In this document: positions 1 to 43,166 of the stretch, piece by piece
Position numbering within the stretch: the first letter of the stretch is position 1
How the letters are laid out: the number at the start of each line of letters is the position of its first letter
Assembly (NCBI GenBank): GCA_041653835.1
Contig: JBAZEP010000003.1
Coordinates: forward strand, 3,812-67,811
Direction of reading: 5' to 3'
Length of the DNA stretch: 64,000 bases
Origin: Candidatus Omnitrophota bacterium
Lineage (GTDB): Bacteria > Omnitrophota > Gorgyraeia > Gorgyraeales > Gorgyraeaceae
Translations under genes and position numbers: made by a program
The notes under the pieces: model-generated
Told to the model about the DNA's origin: nothing
What the model saw: the letters and a program-made list of their open reading frames with translations, nothing else
The model's database searches: none

Positions 1-1515
1 AGAAAAACAAAGAAAGAAGCAGCCATCAAAGAAAAAGATGATAAAAAGCAAACAGCCATAGAGAAAACTAAAGAGGCGCAAGATGCACTCACTAGTATTA
101 AAAATACTTTGAAACACACCCTTAACATTAACGACAAGATTAATTGGAATTCTTTATTGGATGAATCTAAATACCCTAAGAACAAGCCTAAAAGTCCAGA
201 ATTATTTACCATGCCAATTGAGCCCCAGAAAAATGACAAAGAATTTACGCCCAAAATAAACTTTATTATATCGTTGTTTTCTAGTTTAAAACAAAAAAGA
301 ATTGGAGAGGCGAATTGTTTATTCGAACGAGCCTATTCTGAATGGAAAATAAAAAAGAACAGTACGGAAGAAAATAATAGAAAATTACTCGAAAAGTATG
401 AAGAAGAAAGTTTGAAATGGCAAGAAGAGGAGAAAAAATATATTGTAAAGAGAGAAGAGAAAAATAAACGAATTTTAGAAAAAAAGGAAAAGTATTTTAG
501 AAAAGATCCAGCTATGATCGCAGAGTATTGTGAAATGATCTTGTCGAATTCGCAATATCCTGATACCTTTCCGCAGGAATTCGATGTTGAATATATACCC
601 GAATCTAAGATTTTGTTAGTAGATTATTTTCTACCAAGCATAGAAGATTTGCCGACATTAAAGGAAGTCAAATATAACATTTCACAAGACCAATTCAAAG
701 AAATACAAATTTCTGAATCAGATTTAAATAAATTATATGATAGCCTCTTATATCAAATAACACTCAGGACAATGCATGAGTTATATGAAGCAGATGTGAT
801 TGATGCTGTCGCCTCAATTATATTCAATGGATATGTTAGATTCATAGATAGCGGCACAGGAAAAGAAGTTTGTGCCTGCATTCTTTCAATTCAAGTGCAA
901 AGAGAAGATTTCTTAAATATTAATCTTGAGAATATTGAACCTAAAGCTTGTTTTAAAGCTTTAAAAGGCATAGGGAGCAGCAAACTTCACGGACTTGCAC
1001 CAATAGCTCCGATTATGAAACTGAACAAAGAAGATAAAAGATTTATAGTGCCATATGAAGTAGCGGGCAAAATTGATGAAGGAACAAATATTGCGGCAAT
1101 GGATTGGCAAGATTTTGAAAACTTAATTAGAGAACTATTTGAAAAAGAATTTGTTCCCGAAGGAGGAGAGGTAAAAATAACTAGAGCAAGTCGAGATGAA
1201 GGTGTAGATGCGGTAATATTTGATCCTGATCCGATTCGTGGTGGCAAGATTGTGATACAGGCTAAAAGGTATACTAATGTAGTTGGGGTTTCAGCTGTTC
1301 GCGATTTATATGGCACAGTTCTTAATGAAGGAGCGATGAAAGGTATTCTTGTTACCACAGCTGATTATGGTCCTGATTCCTATAAATTTGCCCAAGATAA
1401 ACCAATAACTTTATTAAATGGTAACAACCTTTTGCATCTATTGGAAAAGCATGGTCATAAGGCTAAAATTGATATAAGAGAGGCAAAGAAAATTTTAGGT
1501 AAAAAGGTAACTTGA
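1..1515 (+). CDS. Mrr-type restriction endonuclease catalytic-domain protein. A Lys/Glu-rich coiled-coil N-terminal region is fused to a C-terminal Mrr_cat PD-(D/E)xK nuclease domain. The gene is probably 5'-truncated by the window edge.
   Basis: The frame is open from nt 1, and the ORF track starts at TTG 109. The C-terminus (WQDFENLIRELF...GVDAVIFDPD...IVIQAKRYTNVVGVSAVRDLYG...GILVTTADY) matches the Mrr_cat restriction-endonuclease domain pattern (D..D...QCKRY...V..L.G......GI.VTT..F). The gene is AT-rich. Confidence 0.6.
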   Translation, partial: RKTKKEAAIKEKDDKKQTAIEKTKEAQDALTSIKNTLKHTLNINDKINWNSLLDESKYPKNKPKSPELFTMPIEPQKNDKEFTPKINFIISLFSSLKQKRIGEANCLFERAYSEWKIKKNSTEENNRKLLEKYEEESLKWQEEEKKYIVKREEKNKRILEKKEKYFRKDPAMIAEYCEMILSNSQYPDTFPQEFDVEYIPESKILLVDYFLPSIEDLPTLKEVKYNISQDQFKEIQISESDLNKLYDSLLYQITLRTMHELYEADVIDAVASIIFNGYVRFIDSGTGKEVCACILSIQVQREDFLNINLENIEPKACFKALKGIGSSKLHGLAPIAPIMKLNKEDKRFIVPYEVAGKIDEGTNIAAMDWQDFENLIRELFEKEFVPEGGEVKITRASRDEGVDAVIFDPDPIRGGKIVIQAKRYTNVVGVSAVRDLYGTVLNEGAMKGILVTTADYGPDSYKFAQDKPITLLNGNNLLHLLEKHGHKAKIDIREAKKILGKKVT

Positions 1516-1755
1516 TAATGGTAAATATGGACATGTCAAAAAGGGACACACCTATTTGAAGAGTGTCCCCAGATGACACGTCCCCCATAAGTCCCATCTG
1601 GACATCCCTAGTTAGCAAAACGAGTTTCTCGAGATTTCCTTGAGAAAAAGGCTAAGGGCATATTGATTTCATTGAAAGTTGAAAAAGAACATTCCGCTAA
1701 TAGTTGTTAATAGTAACTTCGCTTGTTTTACCTAACAAATTGTATATTTTTTGCT

Positions 1756-1784
1756 TGACATATTAACAATCATTTGCTAAAGTT
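1756..1784 (+). promoter_or_regulatory. sigma70-like promoter TTGACA-N17-TAAAGT upstream of the HTH paralog array
   Basis: Consensus -35 hexamer and a TAnnnT -10, about 40 nt upstream of paralog 1. Confidence 0.5.
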
Positions 1785-1823
1785 TATAGATAATCAAATG
1801 AGATTATAATAAGGAGGGTGCAA

Positions 1824-2105
1824 ATGGAAAGAATATTGCAAAGAATCGATAATAATTTGAAAATTATATTATCAATTCTACTGGAAAAGAAAATAAAGGA
1901 AGGCAACCTTTCGGACCAACAGCAAGTATCTTTTCTTCAGGAAAGAGGATTAGGGATAGCAGAGATAGCTATGGTGCTAGGTAAAACGTCAAATGCTGTG
2001 CGTATTTTACTCACTCGTTTGCGCAAAAAAGGTCAGAAGATTCCTAAAGGAGGAAATCAATGTCAGAAAAAATTCAAGAAAATCAGGAGATACTTAAGAG
2101 ACTAG
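1824..2105 (+). CDS. small HTH protein (sigma-70 region-4 / resolvase-HTH-like), paralog 1 of 5 tandem copies
   Basis: The RBS AAGGAGGG sits 6 nt upstream of the ATG. A C-terminal HTH (GLGIAEIAMVLGKTSNAVRILLTRLRKK) is shared by the four downstream paralogs. The 3' tail overlaps the start of paralog 2. Confidence 0.55.
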   Translation: MERILQRIDNNLKIILSILLEKKIKEGNLSDQQQVSFLQERGLGIAEIAMVLGKTSNAVRILLTRLRKKGQKIPKGGNQCQKKFKKIRRYLRD

Positions 2106-2287
2106 ATATTATTATTAGATTGCTATTGCGGAATATGAAGTCAAAAGAGAGTAATTTATTATTTATGGAACAGATTGGATTGTTAAAGGAGATAGGTTTA
2201 TCTACAGCAGATATCTCTAAAATAACTGGGAAACCGTCAAATTATGTTAGTTCAGTTATTAAGCATTTATCTAAAAAAAGGGGTTAG
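2060..2287 (+). CDS. small HTH protein, paralog 2 of 5
   Basis: RBS AAAGGAGGA; same L.rLD.iI.LL...G....dIA.ilG...n.V pattern as its neighbours. Confidence 0.55.
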   Translation: MSEKIQENQEILKRLDIIIRLLLRNMKSKESNLLFMEQIGLLKEIGLSTADISKITGKPSNYVSSVIKHLSKKRG

Positions 2288-2292
2288 TAGAC

Positions 2293-2499
2293 ATGGAAGA
2301 AAAAAGCCTTTCAGATTTAAGCAAGAAGGTTGATATGGTAATAAAATTAATGATTGCAGGTTTGACTGCGGATAAACAGTTGACTGACCAAGTAAAAATT
2401 CTTGCTTTGGCTGGAATCAAACCTAAAGATATTGCAGATATTCTAGGAACTACTCCAAATACGGTTAGTGTTCTATTGTCAAGAAACAAGAGAAAGTGA
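2293..2499 (+). CDS. small HTH protein, paralog 3 of 5
   Basis: RBS AAAGGGG; HTH motif IADILGTTPNTVSVLLSRNKRK. Confidence 0.55.
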   Translation: MEEKSLSDLSKKVDMVIKLMIAGLTADKQLTDQVKILALAGIKPKDIADILGTTPNTVSVLLSRNKRK

Positions 2500-2508
2500 G
2501 AGGAGAAT

Positions 2509-2763
2509 ATGGAAAAGAAAAAGCCTAAAAGTAATCCGCAAGATGATTCAGTAGATATGACTAAAGTGCTTCTTGAACGATTGATAGTTATTAGTGAAAA
2601 CTCAATGATCGTAAATCTTGCCCTAAAGGGTATTCCTCATCAACAGATCAGAAAAATGGCACAATGCGATATGCGACGAATAACAAGATTATTAAAACCA
2701 GTTAATAAATATATTAAGAAATTTGTTGCCGAGAACGGGACTATAATAGATAAGGAGAAATAA
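2509..2763 (+). CDS. small HTH-like protein, paralog 4 of 5 (most divergent)
   Basis: RBS GAGGAG. It shares the N-terminal L..LI.I and Q.I.....G pattern, but the HTH is degenerate. Confidence 0.5.
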   Translation: MEKKKPKSNPQDDSVDMTKVLLERLIVISENSMIVNLALKGIPHQQIRKMAQCDMRRITRLLKPVNKYIKKFVAENGTIIDKEK

Positions 2764-2764
2764 T

Positions 2765-2980
2765 ATGTCTAAAGATGATGAAATATTACAAAAGTTAGAT
2801 TTGGTCATCAAATTGTTAGGGATAATAGCCACACAGGCAGATCTGTCAAAAAAACTACAACGAGAACAAATTGTTATCCTGGATAAGCACGGTTTTAGAA
2901 ATAAAGATATTGCAAATATTTTTGGGATTAAAGCACAACAAGTAAACAATGCATTATTAGGTAATAAAAAAAGAAAATGA
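2765..2980 (+). CDS. small HTH protein, paralog 5 of 5
   Basis: RBS AAGGAGA; LQKLDLVIKLL...KDIANIFGIKAQQVNNALLGNKKRK. Confidence 0.55.
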   Translation: MSKDDEILQKLDLVIKLLGIIATQADLSKKLQREQIVILDKHGFRNKDIANIFGIKAQQVNNALLGNKKRK

Positions 2981-4038
2981 TTTTTAAGGGGAAAAAATAT
3001 AAAATTGCAATGCTATTAGGCGCTGGAGCGACTAGGGGAGCATTGAGGGGTGTGTCAAGGCCAGTTATAAGAGCCCCATTAAATAAAGATTTTTTTGAAG
3101 TCGCTAAGAGATTTATTTCTTGCCCAGAAGGTAGAAGATATAAAAATTGTTTTATTCGTGTAAGCAAATTTATTTCTGATCAAATGATGCCGTTTAACAA
3201 AAGGCATCCAACTATGGAAGAAGTTTTTAGCACACTTTTTATGTCTAAAGATTTGCCTGTTATCTTTAAAACAGGAAGGGGTAGAATAAGGAAGGAAGGT
3301 TTTAGGCCTGAAATTAGAGATTTTTTAGTTTTGCTAATTGCTATATTTAGATTTCTTCAAATGAATTTAAAACACAAAGATAACATAGACCATTATGCAA
3401 GATTAGTTGCAAAGTTGGAAGAGGGAGATAGCATTATTACTTTGAATTATGATACTTTAGTAGATAATGCCTTGTTGGGTGTTGGATGGAGACCAGAAAA
3501 TGGCTATGGATTCAACGCTTCTTCTAAAATAATCTATAGTAATTTAAGGGCTGTGAAAAGAAGATTTAAAAATGTTTATCTTTTAAAACCACATGGGTCT
3601 CTAAATTGGTTTGCAAGAGGTAAAATTTCTAATCTTGAAGAAACATTGAGTAGGAAAAATGTTTCAAGGATTGATATTGCAAATGCTCCGCGGCTATATA
3701 CTTTAAAGCAAGATAAGTATGTAAGATTTTTTATTCCCCCTCTTTATACAAAATTTTTCAATAATGATTTCTGGAGATATCTTTGGCATGAATCTTATTT
3801 GAGATTAAAGAATTGTAATTGTTTAATAATAATAGGTTGTTCGTTGATTACAACTGACTATCATTTACGAGCGATACTTTCAAAAGTATTAAAAAGTAAG
3901 AAAAAGTTTAAGAAAATTATCATAGTTGACAAAAATCTAAAAGTAGTGGGTAACCTAAAGAAATTTTTTAGAGGTGCTAGTTTTTCTGGTTGTGAAACAT
4001 ACAATACATTTACGGAATACATAGAAAGTTTAAATTAA
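2977..4038 (+). CDS. SIR2-like (SIR2_2/DUF4020-type) domain protein, candidate NADase defence effector
   Basis: Motifs LLGAGATRGA (glycine-rich NAD-binding), TLNYDTLVDN (TNYD motif) and LLKPHGSLNWF (HG catalytic motif) match defence-associated SIR2_2 proteins. Its start overlaps the stop of HTH paralog 5. Confidence 0.6.
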   Translation: MIFKGKKYKIAMLLGAGATRGALRGVSRPVIRAPLNKDFFEVAKRFISCPEGRRYKNCFIRVSKFISDQMMPFNKRHPTMEEVFSTLFMSKDLPVIFKTGRGRIRKEGFRPEIRDFLVLLIAIFRFLQMNLKHKDNIDHYARLVAKLEEGDSIITLNYDTLVDNALLGVGWRPENGYGFNASSKIIYSNLRAVKRRFKNVYLLKPHGSLNWFARGKISNLEETLSRKNVSRIDIANAPRLYTLKQDKYVRFFIPPLYTKFFNNDFWRYLWHESYLRLKNCNCLIIIGCSLITTDYHLRAILSKVLKSKKKFKKIIIVDKNLKVVGNLKKFFRGASFSGCETYNTFTEYIESLN

Positions 4039-4067
4039 CCAAGTTTATAAAGAATTATGTTAATTTT

Positions 4068-4769
4068 TTGCAAATGCCCAAGAACAGATTAAGCAAAAAA
4101 CTTTTATTAAAAGTTGCTAGTAAGTCTAAACATAAACTTAAATACGTAAGAGAACAAATAAGTAAACGAGCGAGTAGGTTGAGCATTAATGCAGAAGCAG
4201 CTCTGATCCTTTGGGCAAAAGAATTAGGCATAGGGACAGCCGCATTTCAACATTCTTTACCTCCTCATATCCAGTTAGACATTAGAAATAGTTTGTCATC
4301 ACCAGCTGGGCATATTAAGAGCGGGAGAGTATTAAAATCAAAGCGTAATTTAAATATGGTATCCAGTAAATCATTGATTAATATAGACGACTTAATTCAG
4401 GATGATGAGCTTCGCAATAGATGCAAAGATTTATTAATGGCTAAAGATAAGTTTGATCGAGTGATTAGAGAAGCAACGACAGTATTAGATCATCGAATTA
4501 AAAAGGCGGGAGGTTTGAAAAATATAAATCCAGTAGATGCTGTTGGTAAAGTATTAAATCCAGATCCCAATAAAGCCATTCTTAAAATAAGTGAAGAAAA
4601 GTCCTTACAGGAAGGGTTCTTTTCTATATGCAAAGGGCTAATGTTGGCTTTCCGTGATCCAGCACATCATGAGATTACTGATAATTTTAGCAGGGAAGAG
4701 GCAATAAAGTTTTGTGGTTTAGTAGATATTGTTTTGGGAGCTATCTCGAAATCAAGTAAAATAACTTAA
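4068..4769 (+). CDS. HEPN-like (TIGR02391/Abi-type) domain protein
   Basis: The C-terminal region carries an Rx4H-type motif (FRDPAHHE) in a helical context resembling Abi/HEPN RNase families. The gene sits immediately downstream of the SIR2 gene in the AT-rich island. Confidence 0.45.
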   Translation: MQMPKNRLSKKLLLKVASKSKHKLKYVREQISKRASRLSINAEAALILWAKELGIGTAAFQHSLPPHIQLDIRNSLSSPAGHIKSGRVLKSKRNLNMVSSKSLINIDDLIQDDELRNRCKDLLMAKDKFDRVIREATTVLDHRIKKAGGLKNINPVDAVGKVLNPDPNKAILKISEEKSLQEGFFSICKGLMLAFRDPAHHEITDNFSREEAIKFCGLVDIVLGAISKSSKIT

Positions 4770-5001
4770 TGGTTCTGTAGATATGAACTTAAAACTTCAG
4801 CAGTTCCGCAGGTTTTGATTTCGATGTTTTACCAGCCCTAGCAGGTTTGAGAAAAGCTTTTTGTTTTGCGGGACATAAGATATTGCATTGCTGGGATGTT
4901 GCCTGTCAAAACAAAACAGAGCGAAGCCCACATTACCAAATAATCCATCTTTTGGTTGAGCGTCTTTTCGAAAGCCTGACAGGGATGGCAAAAACACCTT
5001 A

Positions 5002-5044
5002 ACCGCGTAGGATGCCTACGGTAACCTACGCGGTTTTTCTTTTT
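5002..5044 (+). terminator. intrinsic terminator (10-bp stem ACCGCGTAGG/CCTACGCGGT + TTTTCTTTTT)
   Basis: Perfect stem with a 13-nt loop and a T-run, in the non-coding zone after the AT-rich island. Confidence 0.75.
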
Positions 5045-5153
5045 CATTGACACTTTTATAATTTCTGGTAAGATATAGGTACAATTTACTTCAAAAGCGC
5101 GACTGGCGATGCATGCATGGGAAACCATGAGGGAGCGCGAATACGCAAAATCG

Positions 5154-5192
5154 AACGCCTGGGTTTTAAGAATCCAGGCGTTTATTGTTTTT
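5154..5192 (+). terminator. intrinsic terminator (9-bp stem AACGCCTGG/CCAGGCGTT + TATTGTTTTT), 3' end of a candidate small RNA
   Basis: Hairpin plus T-tract about 100 nt downstream of the promoter-like TTGACA at 5046. No ORF lies between them. Confidence 0.65.
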
Positions 5193-5211
5193 GGCCCTTG
5201 ACATTTTGCCC

Positions 5212-5490
5212 ATGAATTCAGGATATTACTTTTATATCTTAGTATGTAGCGATGGTTCTAAATATTATGGCCATACAAATAATTTAGCGAAACGTTTTTC
5301 ATATCATTCAAAAGGATGTGTTTCCTCTACAAAAAGCAAGCGGCCGGTAAAGTTGGTTTATTATGAGGAATTTAATTCCCGGCCAGAAGCTTTTAGAAGA
5401 GAAATGCAGTTTAAAAACGGCAGGACAAGAAAAGAGACTATAGAAAACCTAATAAACTCTTTCGACATGGGCAAAATGTCAAGGGTTTAA
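5212..5490 (+). CDS. GIY-YIG nuclease superfamily protein (YhbQ/UPF0213-like), copy 1
   Basis: [30 protein letters not shown]...[11 protein letters not shown]...[11 protein letters not shown] matches the GIY-YIG motif. The track ORF starts at TTG 5185; the ATG is at 5212. Confidence 0.7.
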
Positions 5491-5566
5491 TTCGCAGACG
5501 GCCTTCGGCCTACAAGTTACGTCGCTACGCTCCATAACTTGTCTGCTCATTAAAGGAGACTATTAT

Positions 5567-7777
5567 ATGTTCACACGCGGACGTTGGGACAAAACAATAG
5601 ATATAAGGGATTTTATTAATAGGAATTATAAGCCGTATGACGGGGATGAGTCATTTTTGTGCGGGCCTACAGCCAGGACCAAAAAACTCTGGCAGGAATG
5701 CCTTACGCTTTTCAAGAAAGAGCACGATAAAGGCGGGGTTTTTGATATCGACGTATCAACTGTATCGACTATCACAAGCCACAAGCCCGGTTATATAGAT
5801 AAGAAGCTTGAGATCATTAAGGGACTGCAGACCGATAAGCCGCTTAAAAGGGCGATAAAGCCGCTGGGCGGCATACGCATGGTGGAGCAGGCCTGCGAGG
5901 ACTATGGGTATGAACTGGATAATAAGATCAAAGAGATATATTTAAAATATCGCAAGACGCATAATGACGGTGTGTTCGATTCTTATACCACGGATATATT
6001 AAGGGCCAGGCGCACAGGACTTATTACAGGCCTGCCGGATAATTATTCAAGGGGAAGGATAATAGGCGATTATAGACGCGTGGCGCTCTACGGCATAGAA
6101 AAGCTTATTAAAGCGAAAAAACATGATAAGGAGCTATTAGAGGATTATTCTTCCCAGGAGGCAGTAAAGTTAAGGGAAGAGATAGCTGACCAGATAGGAG
6201 CCTTGGAAGATATTATAAAATTAGGTAGCTCCTACGGCTTTGACCTGACAAGGCCGGCGGAAGACGCGAAAGAAGCTTTCCAATGGGTTTATCTGGCTTA
6301 TCTCGCGGCCATAAAGGAACAGGACGGGGCAGCAATGAGCCTTGGAAGCGTGAGTAATTTCTTTGATATATACATTGAAAGAGATATTAACCTGGGAAAA
6401 TTGACTGAAGAAAAGGCTCAGGAACTGGTGGATGACTTTGTGATAAAACTGCGCATGGTGCGGCACTTAAGGCCAAAATCATATGATGAGATATTCGCGG
6501 GCGATCCGGTATGGATAACAGAGAGTATAGCGGGGATAGGTATAGACGGCAGGCACAAGGTCACAAAGACATCTTACAGGTTCTTACAGACTTTATACAA
6601 CCTGGGGCCTGCTCCTGAGCCGAATCTTACGGTTTTGTGGTCATCCCGGCTTCCTGAGAATTTTAAGAGATTCTGCGCGAAAGTTTCCATTACCACGAGC
6701 TCTATCCAGTATGAGAATGATGACCTGATGCGCTCCATAGGCGGGGATGATTACAGTATTTCATGCTGTGTGTCGCTTTTAAAGAACGGAAGTGAGATGC
6801 AGTATTTCGGGGCGAGATGTAATCTCGCGAAGGTATTGCTCTACGCGCTAAATGAGGGAAGGGATGAGATCACAGGAGAAACAGTTGTCCCGGGCATAGC
6901 GCCTATAAGTTCTGAGCCACTAGACCATGATGAGGTAAAAGAGCGTTTTATGCAGGTCCTGCGCTGGACCACGAGGACATATGTCCAGGCGCTTAATATC
7001 ATCCATTCAGTGCATGATACGTATTATTACGAACGCTCGCAGATGGCTTTACTTAATACGGAACTCACGCGTTATATGGCATTCGGCATAGCCGGCTTGT
7101 CTGTAGTGGCTGATTCTTTAAGCGCTATACGTTACGCCAAAGTCAGCGCTATACGCAATAATAAAGGCCTTACAACGGATTTTAAGATCAAGGGAGATTT
7201 TTACGCATTTGGGAATGATGATGACAGGGTGGATGGGAGAGTCGTGGACCTCGTTACCACGTTCCTCTCTGAGATCAAAAAACATAAATTTTACAGGGAT
7301 TCTCTTCCCGCGGTTTCTATCCTTACAATTACTTCGAACGTAATGTATGGCAAGAAAACAGGCGCTACCCCTGACGGAAGGAAAAAAGGCGAACCTTTTG
7401 CCCCAGGCGCGAATCCCATGCACGGCAGGGATAAAAACGGGATAGTGGCATCTTTAAATTCCGTAGCGAGTATCCCTTATTCCGAATGCAGGGATGGTAT
7501 ATCGAACACATTTACCACTGTGCCGGATACATTGGGGAAGACTAAGGACGAGCGGATAACGAACCTCGCGGGTTTACTCGAAGGATATTTTATTAAAGGC
7601 GCACAGCACTTGAATGTCAATGTGATAGATAAGGCGACGCTTAAAGACGCGATGAAGCATCCGCATAAATATCCGCAGTTAACTATCCGCGTGTCAGGAT
7701 ACGCTGTTCATTTTAATAAGTTGTCAGGTGAACAGCAGAGAGAGGTCCTGGCAAGGACATTTCATGAAAGCATGTAA
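5567..7777 (+). CDS. pflB: formate C-acetyltransferase (pyruvate formate-lyase)
   Basis: The N-terminus ([20 protein letters not shown]) and the C-terminal glycyl-radical motif (RVSGYAVHF) are both present; the protein is 736 aa. Confidence 0.95.
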
Positions 7778-8504
7778 GAAAAACTCTATAGCTGGAAGGG
7801 TCCATTCAATAGAAAGTTTCGCGACACAGGATGGGCCGGGCATACGTTTCCTTGTGTTTTTGCAGGGATGTAGCGCAAGGTGCCTTTATTGCCAGAATCC
7901 TGATACTTGGGAGCTGAAGTCCGGGTTTGATATGAGTCCGGAAGAGGTGCTTGAAAAAGTAAAGCGCTGTATGCCGTATATAAGAGCATCCAAAGGAGGC
8001 ATTACTGTTTCAGGAGGGGAGCCGCTTTTACAAATAGATTTCTTGATAAAACTGTTTAAACTCTGTAAACTGAATGATATTCATACAGCGGTTGATACGA
8101 GCGCTTTTTTTAATAAGCCCGACAGGAAACTTGTAGAAAAACTCATCGCGCTTACAGACCTTTTTATCGTAGATATAAAGGCCGCGCGCGCGAGTCTCCA
8201 TAAAAAGATAACATCAAGAGAATTAAGCGAGGTCATGGAGTTTTTAAACATCCTTGAGTCAAAGAAAACGCATTACTGGTTAAGGTATGTGCTTGTGCCG
8301 AAATTAAATGATTCAAAAAAAGATATGGAGGCGCTAAAAAAGATCCTCGCAAGGCTAAAGTTTTGCGAAAAATTCGAATTCCTTCCATATCATACTCTCG
8401 GCAAACATAAATGGGAATATATGAAACTCAAATATCCCTTGCGCAATACGCGTCCGGCAACTTCGCAGGATATAAAAAGAGCTCAACTCGCGTTAAATAA
8501 ATAG
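7764..8504 (+). CDS. pflA: pyruvate formate-lyase activating enzyme (radical SAM)
   Basis: [11 protein letters not shown] radical-SAM CxxxCxxC motif is present. The gene overlaps the pflB stop codon. Confidence 0.9.
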
Positions 8505-16483: not shown

Positions 16484-16524
16484 GTTGACAATCGCGCTTT
16501 AAAATGATTTAATAAGATAAATAA

Positions 16525-16664
16525 CGGGGAGGCCGCTGGATCGCGGCCTGAGAGTTCCGTGGAGCGAACGGATTACCCTTTGAACCTGAACTGGATAATG
16601 CCAGCGTAGGGAAAGATGTTAATTGTTCCGGCCCTTACGCGTTGTGTGTAAGGGTTATTTTTTT
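16525..16664 (+). promoter_or_regulatory. TPP (THI-box) riboswitch with intrinsic-terminator expression platform
   Basis: The conserved CUGAGA and ACCCUUUGAACCUGA.CUGGAUAAUGCCAGCGUAGGGAA core is present. It is followed by hairpin CCCTTAC...GTAAGGG plus a T-tract at 16632-16664, directly upstream of thi4. Confidence 0.85.
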
Positions 16665-42730: not shown

Positions 42731-42807
42731 GCGCCCGTAGCTCAATTGGATAGAGTGGCTGGCTTCGAACCAGCAGGTTGGGTGTTCGATTCACCCCGGG
42801 CGCACCA
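42731..42807 (+). tRNA. tRNA-Arg (anticodon TCG)
   Basis: Cloverleaf with anticodon loop CTTCGAA. CCA is encoded. Confidence 0.8.
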
Positions 42808-42820
42808 TGCCTAAATATTA

Positions 42821-42849
42821 TTGACGGATTTTTTAACCTGTGATATCAT
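42821..42849 (+). promoter_or_regulatory. promoter TTGACG-N17-(TGa)TATCAT for the tRNA Lys-Leu-Gly cluster
   Basis: Near-consensus -35 and an extended -10, 27 nt upstream of tRNA-Lys. Confidence 0.55.
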
Positions 42850-42875
42850 TTAATCTTAACATCTGAACTAAGAGT

Positions 42876-42951
42876 GCCCCCATAGCTCAGTTGGTAGAGC
42901 ACCTGACTCTTAATCAGGGTGTCACAGGTTCGAGCCCTGTTGGGGGTACCA
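42876..42951 (+). tRNA. tRNA-Lys (anticodon CTT)
   Basis: Anticodon loop CTCTTAA. CCA is encoded. Confidence 0.8.
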
Positions 42952-42952
42952 C

Positions 42953-43037
42953 GCGAGGGTGGCGGAATTGGCAGACGCGCTAGCCTTAGGAGCTAGTGGG
43001 GAGACCCCTGAGGGTTCGACTCCCTCCTCTCGCACCA
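42953..43037 (+). tRNA. tRNA-Leu (anticodon TAG), long variable arm
   Basis: Anticodon loop CTTAGGA with an extra arm; 85 nt. Confidence 0.8.
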
Positions 43038-43091
43038 AATGTGCTGTATGCTTCTAACCTGGTTAGAAGTAGATGAGAAGTAGATGTGTAC

Positions 43092-43166
43092 GCGGGAGTA
43101 GCTCAGTGGTAGAGCTTCTCGTTGCCAACGAGAAGGTCGCGGGTTCGAACCCCGTCTCCCGCTCCA
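43092..43166 (+). tRNA. tRNA-Gly (anticodon GCC)
   Basis: GCGGGAGTAGCTCAGTGGTAGAGC...TTGCCAA...GGTTCGAAC. Confidence 0.85.

Follow-up and report, generated by a model that had tools for sequence, protein, structure and literature searches.

A recurrent array of small helix-turn-helix genes as a candidate control module for SIR2 and HEPN effectors in a Candidatus Omnitrophota genome

What do five consecutive genes for proteins of about 70 amino acids (aa), each apparently a stand-alone helix-turn-helix (HTH) domain, do directly in front of genes for two putative effectors, a SIR2-family protein and a Ymh-type HEPN protein? The locus that raises this question lies near the start of a stretch of 64,000 nucleotides (nt) from a Candidatus Omnitrophota metagenome-assembled genome (assembly GCA_041653835.1, contig JBAZEP010000003.1, positions 3,812 to 67,811, forward strand), which we call the window and whose own numbering is used throughout; the GenBank proteins of this region are MFA5388313-17. 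An earlier reading made from the DNA letters alone (the sequence-only reading) had offered three answers, namely regulators of the adjacent defence genes, decoys of sigma factors, or a diversifying specificity module. The first of these, regulation or control of the defence genes, is the best-fitting answer, and we give a probability of roughly 0.5 to the specific proposal that the array provides the abortive-infection effectors SIR2 and HEPN with an HTH control module of several subunits, a repressor and/or an antitoxin-like partner.

Window positions 1614-4769 apparently represent one operon, acquired horizontally, of a modular system that is conserved and widespread, occurs in many uncultured bacteria, is unannotated and seems not to have been described before. 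Its features are listed below, with the ratio of nonsynonymous to synonymous substitution rates (dN/dS) given against a variant contig, L002, and E-values given against hidden Markov models (HMMs) of the small-protein family, here called mini-HTH.

1614..4755, plus strand: conserved module (promoter region, five mini-HTH genes, SIR2, HEPN), a 3.1-kb BLASTN block shared with L002
1696..1777, plus strand: inverted repeat, a candidate operator; arms 1696-1712 and 1761-1777, 17 nt, 82% complementary
1755..1783, plus strand: sigma-70-type promoter-like site; TTGACA, 17-nt spacer, TG-extended TAAAGT; 10/12 consensus matches
1824-2105, plus strand: o1, mini-HTH; 93 aa here, 78 aa in L002; family HMM E 4e-24; dN/dS 0.23
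2060-2287, plus strand: o2, mini-HTH; 75 aa; family HMM E 3e-26; dN/dS 0.21
2293-2499, plus strand: o3, mini-HTH of the most conserved type; 68 aa; dN/dS 0.17
2509-2763, plus strand: o4, mini-HTH of a divergent subfamily; 84 aa; dN/dS 0.15; profile-profile match to the family
2765-2980, plus strand: o5, mini-HTH; 71 aa; overlaps the SIR2 start; family HMM E 1e-25; dN/dS 0.15
2977..4038, plus strand: SIR2-family protein, putative effector consuming nicotinamide adenine dinucleotide (NAD); 353 aa; Pfam SIR2_2 E 1.5e-6, 28.8 bits against a cutoff of 24.5
4074..4769, plus strand: Ymh-type HEPN protein; 231 aa from its ATG, a TTG at 4068 being also possible; Pfam Hypoth_Ymh E 7e-13

The genes of the array and their operon-like layout

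The five small open reading frames (ORFs) stand on one strand at the coordinates given by the sequence-only reading, and the ribosome-binding strings that it had quoted are found 3-9 nt 5' of each of the five ATGs. Its description of tight spacing is borne out by gaps of -46, +5, +9 and +1 nt from o1 to o5, and the end of the array does overlap the start of the SIR2 gene, o5 and SIR2 having the 4 nt ATGA in common at 2977-2980. All five products are basic, with isoelectric points of 9.6-10.5. There is no NCBI accession for o2, which the PGAP/GenBank annotation skipped and of which IMG holds just a 50-aa internal version (P0018); it was likely missed because of the overlap that arose when o1 lost its stop codon. 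At this junction L002 reads AAT-TGA-TG, with the stop overlapping the o2 start, whereas the window reads AAT-CAA-TG, by which o1 gains 15 codons; the 46-nt overlap is thus a stop codon loss in this strain only, and its interpretation as a programmed feature is ruled out.

Each of the five ORFs is called as a gene on independent public contigs. L002, which derives from another sample, has the module as a single BLASTN block of 89.7% nucleotide identity (L002 217-3369 against window 1614-4755), and the amino-acid substitutions between the two are few and mainly conservative, the HTH of o3 being unchanged. The dN/dS values were taken from these orthologs rather than from the paralogs, since at a paralog identity of 23-45% synonymous sites are saturated; they range from 0.15 to 0.23 across the array, as listed, and are 0.10 for SIR2 and 0.20 for the HEPN protein. 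Chance ORFs and pseudogenes are ruled out by this purifying selection together with the conservation. The flanks of the module are unlike between the window and L002 on both sides, with AbiJ downstream in L002, and because L002 holds the module between unrelated flanks the 3.1-kb unit appears to be mobile as a block. The GC content is 28-36% over window 1-4800 versus 44-48% in the adjacent pfl/fhs genes, which marks the module as foreign in composition.

The promoter-like site, found by a consensus scan, sits 40 nt before o1; both of its hexamers are kept in L002, where the -10 is TAAAAT, and the block around the -35 is near-identical. No terminator-like site was found at 1824-4769, nor any before 5153. 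The idea of co-transcription with the effectors fits this combination of a single upstream promoter-like site, overlapping or near-abutting genes and the absence of an internal terminator-like site, and the five small genes and the effectors would accordingly be read as one operon-like layout. The downstream arm of the inverted repeat begins just past the -35 hexamer; in L002 its upstream arm lies within a 23-nt identical block and its downstream arm has one mismatch.

A recurrent array in front of different effectors

The association was viewed from the effector side by scanning metagenome contigs with the Ymh-HEPN protein, which left 80 loci, 57 of them with at least 1 kb of upstream sequence. 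A strict family member lies directly upstream on the same strand in 44 of these 57, and the iterated profile finds at least one array member upstream in all 57 and at least two in 49, with one, two, three and four members in 8, 13, 19 and 17 loci, respectively. As a control, the proportion of 50-130-aa ORFs matching the iterated profile is 63% within 1.2 kb upstream, 3% downstream and 0/72 far upstream. In 56/67 loci the end of an o4-type ORF lies less than 400 nt before the effector start, mostly at no more than about 65 nt or overlapping it, and the layout characteristic of type II toxin-antitoxin systems, in which a small upstream gene is coupled to the toxin gene, is found for o5 and SIR2 here and for o4-type genes and HEPN elsewhere.

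The family itself was followed through proteins and genomes. A profile search of 5.8 billion proteins gave 17 relatives and, with a broader profile, 271, all of them 50-117 aa long and nearly all metagenomic, and an exhaustive search of 1.84 billion representatives (clusters at 50% identity) gave 5,955 at E <= 1e-3 and 1,483, or about 1,500, at E <= 1e-10, the latter mostly of 65-115 aa and the top-scoring ones being mostly full-length single-domain proteins of 69-115 aa. When the o3-type pattern was run against one genome per GTDB species, 26 loci were recovered, from Actinomycetota, Planctomycetota, Verrucomicrobiota, Acidobacteriota, Chloroflexota, Sumerlaeota, Bathyarchaeota and Chelativorans. 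In 15 of the 26, two or more strict family members stand side by side, with up to four in some, and iterated profiles add further neighbouring small ORFs; directly downstream, 16 of the 26 have one of four effector families, namely Ymh-HEPN, Swt1-HEPN, a CAP12/Pycsar-type TIR protein, or a family of about 290 aa that we call family C. No match to the o3-type protein was found by tblastn in plasmid and phage collections, and no locus with the o3-group alignment was found in viral contigs.

The arrays comprise 1-5 such genes. Each mini-HTH gene of the window has its own orthologs elsewhere by reciprocal phmmer, with the order preserved: an o1 ortholog stands at 944-1168 of L006 (E 1e-18), o2 orthologs are found in L005, L006 and L003, and those of o5 are P0012-P0016. 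These per-type orthologs span phyla and have conserved recognition helices. L005 has o2-, o3- and o4-type genes followed by Ymh-HEPN; L006 has o1-, o2- and o3-type genes followed by Swt1-HEPN; and L003 has five small genes followed by a protein of about 290 aa and a winged-HTH (wHTH)-SLFN/AlbA_2 protein. After the first Swt1-HEPN gene of L006 there is a further mini-HTH pair (2566-2781 and 2781-2981) and then a shorter Swt1-like HEPN gene (3013-3519), and this segment, 2566-3519, resembles a tandem copy of the entire system type. In L005 the mini-HTH/Ymh-HEPN unit is followed immediately, at 3342-7849, by genes for a 998-aa ATPase_2 protein and a TCAD9-domain protein, which are components of NTPase-based conflict systems.

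The exchange of effectors is seen within one group of arrays. L035, L039 and L040 have five-gene arrays (about 81, 77-85, 89-91, 62-66 and 61 aa) whose corresponding genes are close orthologs. Behind these arrays L035 and L040 have a family C effector, and L039, whose fifth gene is truncated to 30 aa, has Ymh-HEPN. Since orthologous arrays thus carry different effectors, the array can be taken as the constant part of the system and the effector as the variable part. Many islands consist of array and effector alone, inserted without an integrase among housekeeping genes. Two complete family units are fused in each of P0162 and P0188, and long proteins of 246-903 aa (P0145, P0150, P0160, P0173) carry 5-12 tandem copies of the HTH portion, from which it follows that the array also exists as a single polypeptide.

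Whether such arrays recur beside SIR2 or HEPN genes had been raised as a check, and the two halves of this expectation fared differently: recurrence beside HEPN holds at many loci, whereas the association with SIR2 is narrow, being confined to the lineage of the window (L001), L002 and L122. The order in L122 is o4-like, o5-like, SIR2, with o1-o3 absent, and the window looks like an o1-o2-o3-o4-HEPN system into which an o5-SIR2 pair may have been inserted before the HEPN gene.

Both effectors of the window match only generic domain models in PADLOC, those for SIR2 at about 1e-9, and NADase activity of the SIR2 protein would be expected from its family. The HEPN Rx4H motif is intact in the Ymh protein (RDPAHH), and its match to PADLOC PD-lambda-3_B (E 1.7e-5) is weak and covers the HEPN domain only. 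A helical N-terminal domain of about 60 aa is common to the Ymh-HEPN, Swt1-HEPN and CAP12-TIR effectors, with hhalign probabilities of 73% for Ymh versus Swt1, 95% for Swt1 versus TIR and 28% for Ymh versus TIR; it weakly resembles the N-terminus of an archaeal RPA (8aaj, E 4e-5) and part of DUF2240, and could provide a docking surface. SIR2 and family C are without it. Family C proteins have an N-terminal winged helix and a C-terminal domain with the invariant pattern DWGGE...FKG...MGxNxDQxxRLF, for which a nuclease-like fold is a guess. The positions of both features are as follows.

Window 4074-4280; L011 5449-5660; L019 1449-1660: shared N-terminal domain of the effectors
L003 7002-7874; L008 5746-6633; L035 6187-7098; L040 1920-2822: family C effector, about 290-300 aa, no Pfam/PADLOC match

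Paralogy and fold of the small proteins

The description of the five as paralogs stands clearly for o1, o2, o3 and o5, and for o4 as a remote relationship visible only by a deep profile. The four are related by pairwise BLASTP at E = 1e-3 to 4e-13, with paralog identities of 23-45%, and match the mini-HTH family profiles over their full length (E 4e-24 to 3e-28). No match of o4 to the other four was found by pairwise BLASTP, and none by the family HMMs. A provisional view that o4 is unrelated to the family, which came from a 3-sequence profile (5% in hhalign), was reversed by a profile of 78 o4-type sequences, whose alignment to that of the family spans 53 columns (probability 95%, E 3.4e-8); because of this alignment all five can be regarded as paralogs, with o4 in a divergent subfamily. 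The same alignment contains a 9-residue deletion between the first two helices.

The proposed pattern of a single helix followed by an HTH is matched by an AlphaFold2 model of o3 built with 77 homologs, which has a mean predicted local distance difference test score (pLDDT) of 89.4 and helices at 2-25, 30-39, 44-51 and 55-67, that is, a long N-terminal helix and a tri-helical HTH. The model of o4 (pLDDT 75.4) has helices at 17-39, 44-51 and 55-76 in the same order as o3, and this predicted pattern is consistent with a deletion that fuses the first two helices.

The assignment to a class of HTH is less specific than had been suggested. The HTH core superposes at about 1 Å on the solved structures of NarL, resolvase and sigma-4 HTHs, with Foldseek E-values that are not significant for models this small, and the family profile matches, among PDB sequences, the CooA HTH (5.5e-5), SigR region 4 (2e-4) and NarL (1e-3). 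Pfam Sigma70_r4_2 (PF08281) scores 20.7 bits on o1, 20.3 on o3 and 13.4 on o5, all under its gathering threshold of 25.7 bits, and has no match in o2 or o4; a precomputed PF08281 match is present on some homologs elsewhere. The resolvase HTH_7 model (PF02796) matches o3 alone, at 18.6 bits under a threshold of 23.8 bits, and the other Pfam matches of the small proteins, HTH_23 and GerE, are all sub-threshold. In Pfam and NCBIfam, sigma region 2 has no match in the five proteins, which are single domains of 68-93 aa, and no recombinase domain was found in them or in window 1-5500. A sigma-4 assignment is not justified, because LuxR, resolvase and DnaA HTHs match as well and the Pfam scores are sub-threshold; the small proteins are better described, from these models, as predicted simple tri-helical HTHs of the sigma-4/LuxR/resolvase class with a long helix in front. 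They have in common with sigma-70 region 4, LuxR-GerE and resolvase HTH_7 domains the tri-helical core and the motif L..aG....eIA..LG.s..tV, and differ from proteins with those domains in being stand-alone, about 70 aa long, with an extra long N-terminal helix and no sigma region 2, receiver or recombinase domain.

The suggestion that the paralogs differ most in the recognition helix did not survive comparison, as their identity there is 0.28 versus 0.29 and 0.28 in the other long helices, and the least conserved stretch is the loop between the first two helices (H1-H2).

Modes of action and their alternatives

How might such an array act? In the mechanism that we propose, one promoter would drive five basic mini-HTH proteins of about 70 aa and then SIR2 and the Ymh-type HEPN RNase. 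The five small proteins would be distinct, ancient subunit types in a fixed order that act together and bind DNA, probably including their own promoter region, and the effectors would be held in check either by repression of the operon or by direct, antitoxin-like contact, the likeliest contacts being those of the o4 type with the N-terminal domain of HEPN and of o5 with SIR2. Phage infection may then relieve this control, and the resulting NAD depletion and RNA cleavage would lead to abortive infection. The abortive-infection frame draws on the chemistry of the effectors, on the setting (Mrr here, AbiJ in L002) and on the weak PD-lambda-3_B match of the HEPN domain, and neutralisation is favoured over activation on the grounds of gene order and start-stop coupling. 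As a more tentative elaboration, which we regard as possible and rather doubtful, up to five mini-HTH subunits might form a hetero-oligomer on DNA via their N-terminal helices, an infection sensor that gates interchangeable effectors (HEPN, TIR, SIR2 and family C) through cognate subunits, such as the o4 type for the N-terminal domain shared by effectors; the system would then stand for a new and widespread class of modular abortive-infection systems.

Several points weigh against a control module of this kind. Arrays L010 and L027 have no recognisable adjacent effector. One docking mechanism cannot cover every case, because SIR2 and family C are without the shared N-terminal domain. With arms only 82% complementary, the inverted repeat at the promoter may have arisen by chance, and a k-mer search upstream of 81 non-redundant arrays found no shared operator motif, none being above the level of shuffled sequence. 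Finally, classical antitoxins are single genes, and to our knowledge nothing known needs five.

The control module has clear likenesses among known systems, as an HTH control gene or genes with a toxic effector in a defence island is of a general kind that is well known. The three-part PaaR-PaaA-ParE system is an example of a type II toxin-antitoxin operon with an upstream HTH regulator. As in type II toxin-antitoxin and abortive-infection (Abi) operons, one or more small basic HTH genes come first and are tightly coupled to a downstream toxic enzyme; as in these and in PD-lambda-3, the setting is a defence island and the HEPN and SIR2 chemistry is typical of abortive infection. What sets the present system apart from such operons is that two to five distinct paralogous HTH genes in conserved order take the place of one. 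BrxR/CapW (WYL-type) and CapH-CapP are one or two larger regulators with ligand- or damage-sensing domains, shared among defence systems; they resemble the array in forming a DNA-binding control cassette, a constant element before varied defence effectors, whereas the array belongs to a different family, is multi-gene and has no sensor domain. PD-lambda-3 is an experimentally shown abortive-infection system (PMC13190303), and the 2013 HEPN survey described Ymh proteins as solos or fusions near restriction-modification operons, with no such partner.

Against the databases, o1-o4 have no match in PADLOC-DB 2.0 and o5 has only chance-level ones; related small proteins have weak, HTH-level PADLOC matches to CasR, Csa3 and CARF3, and scans of the five proteins with PHROGs and NCBIfam gave only sub-threshold generic HTH matches. 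Among PADLOC candidate systems, array-linked Swt1-HEPN matches PDC-M34B (E 5e-48) and CAP12-TIR matches PDC-S35 (E 4e-18); PDC-M34 and PDC-S35 are defined by their effector domain, without a mini-HTH array, and neither occurs in the window. Tandem mini-HTH arrays before HEPN, TIR or SIR2 genes were not found in the literature, a search that covered neither subscription-only papers nor the newest DefenseFinder models, and a constant module made up of two to five ancient paralogs in a set order appears to be new.

The alternative that survives best is a sensor of DNA occupancy, in which the mini-HTH proteins would sit on the chromosome in the manner of nucleoid-associated proteins, be released or relocated when host DNA is degraded or remodelled by a phage or when phage DNA appears, and then switch the effectors on via the N-terminal domain. 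The small proteins are indeed basic, of a DNA-binding type and the constant component, the effectors can be exchanged and have no sensor domain of their own except the shared small N-terminal domain, and the lack of a common operator motif fits non-specific binding. There is also a precedent in PANGU, in which a YejK-like nucleoid-associated protein is combined with swappable effectors that are activated on its release from DNA (bioRxiv 10.64898/2026.04.06.716658). The likeness consists in a small constant DNA-binding protein with interchangeable effectors, whereas the PANGU proteins have no sequence relationship to those of the array, YejK being a different, larger fold encoded by a single gene, and activation by release is conjecture for the present system. 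No YejK-like family is among the Pfam, NCBIfam and PADLOC matches of any module protein, and the lack of homology to YejK-type nucleoid-associated proteins counts against such a sensor, as do the small gene standing first and overlapping the toxin start, which is more typical of neutralising partners, and the five distinct conserved types, which are needless for non-specific coating. We judge it unlikely.

More improbable still is that the small proteins are plain transcription factors of a mobile island, acting on the island or on other genes without a direct protein-level link to the effectors. Their HTH fold and the promoter-proximal inverted repeat would suit such a role, as would the recombinase or integrase beside arrays L003 and L005 and the few arrays without a recognisable effector, whereas many islands are composed of array and effector only, with no integrase, the link is near-obligatory when viewed from the effector side, and the effector start is, as a rule, translationally coupled.

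The proposal of sigma-factor decoys, made by the sequence-only reading, can be spelt out as one of region-4 mimics to which phage anti-sigma or sigma-appropriating proteins would bind, thereby triggering the effectors. The best Pfam/NCBIfam matches, all sub-threshold, are indeed to sigma-70 region 4 and extracytoplasmic function (ECF) sigma factors, and some homologs have the precomputed PF08281 match; even so, we think this very unlikely, as the window proteins are all under the Pfam cutoff and have no region 2 or 3, LuxR/NarL, resolvase, DeoR and DnaA HTHs match the fold equally well or better, and the types are conserved across very different phyla with differing sigma factors and phages. 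We know of no phage partner. The last proposal, a diversifying specificity module whose rapidly changing recognition helices broaden the target range, could appeal to tandem paralogs only 23-45% identical and is so far contradicted that we give it next to no weight, dN/dS being 0.15-0.23 with few, mostly conservative changes and an unchanged o3 HTH, each type having orthologs in other phyla in the same order and with conserved recognition helices, and the recognition helix being no more divergent than the others.

Should the array prove to be a module for control or sensing, it would define a family of defence or toxin systems missed by current annotation tools. The silence of stand-alone SIR2, HEPN and TIR effectors that have no sensor domain, and their later triggering, would then have an explanation, and several one-domain DNA-binding proteins that are ancient paralogs would be seen, as is rarely the case, to work together in a set order. 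At 3.1 kb the module is compact and self-contained, which makes it easy to clone and test.

The surroundings of the module in the window are of other kinds. Upstream, at 109-1515, is a gene for an Mrr-type type IV restriction enzyme (PADLOC mREase_IV, E 2.4e-60), followed by a 21-nt inverted repeat (1529-1549 / 1563-1583); gene and repeat lie outside the block shared with L002, so that the enzyme gene belongs to the same low-GC island as a defence gene in its own right. Downstream, a ZTP (pfl-motif) riboswitch occupies 5089-5171 and its terminator 5153-5183, and a 101-aa GIY-YIG ORF (5185-5490) is oddly placed between this riboswitch and its usual target genes, here pflB, pflA and the gene for formate-tetrahydrofolate (THF) ligase. 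Farther along the window are a thiamine pyrophosphate (TPP) riboswitch at 16515-16629 and four tRNA genes (Arg, Lys, Leu, Gly) at 42731-43166, which are ordinary and unrelated to the array.

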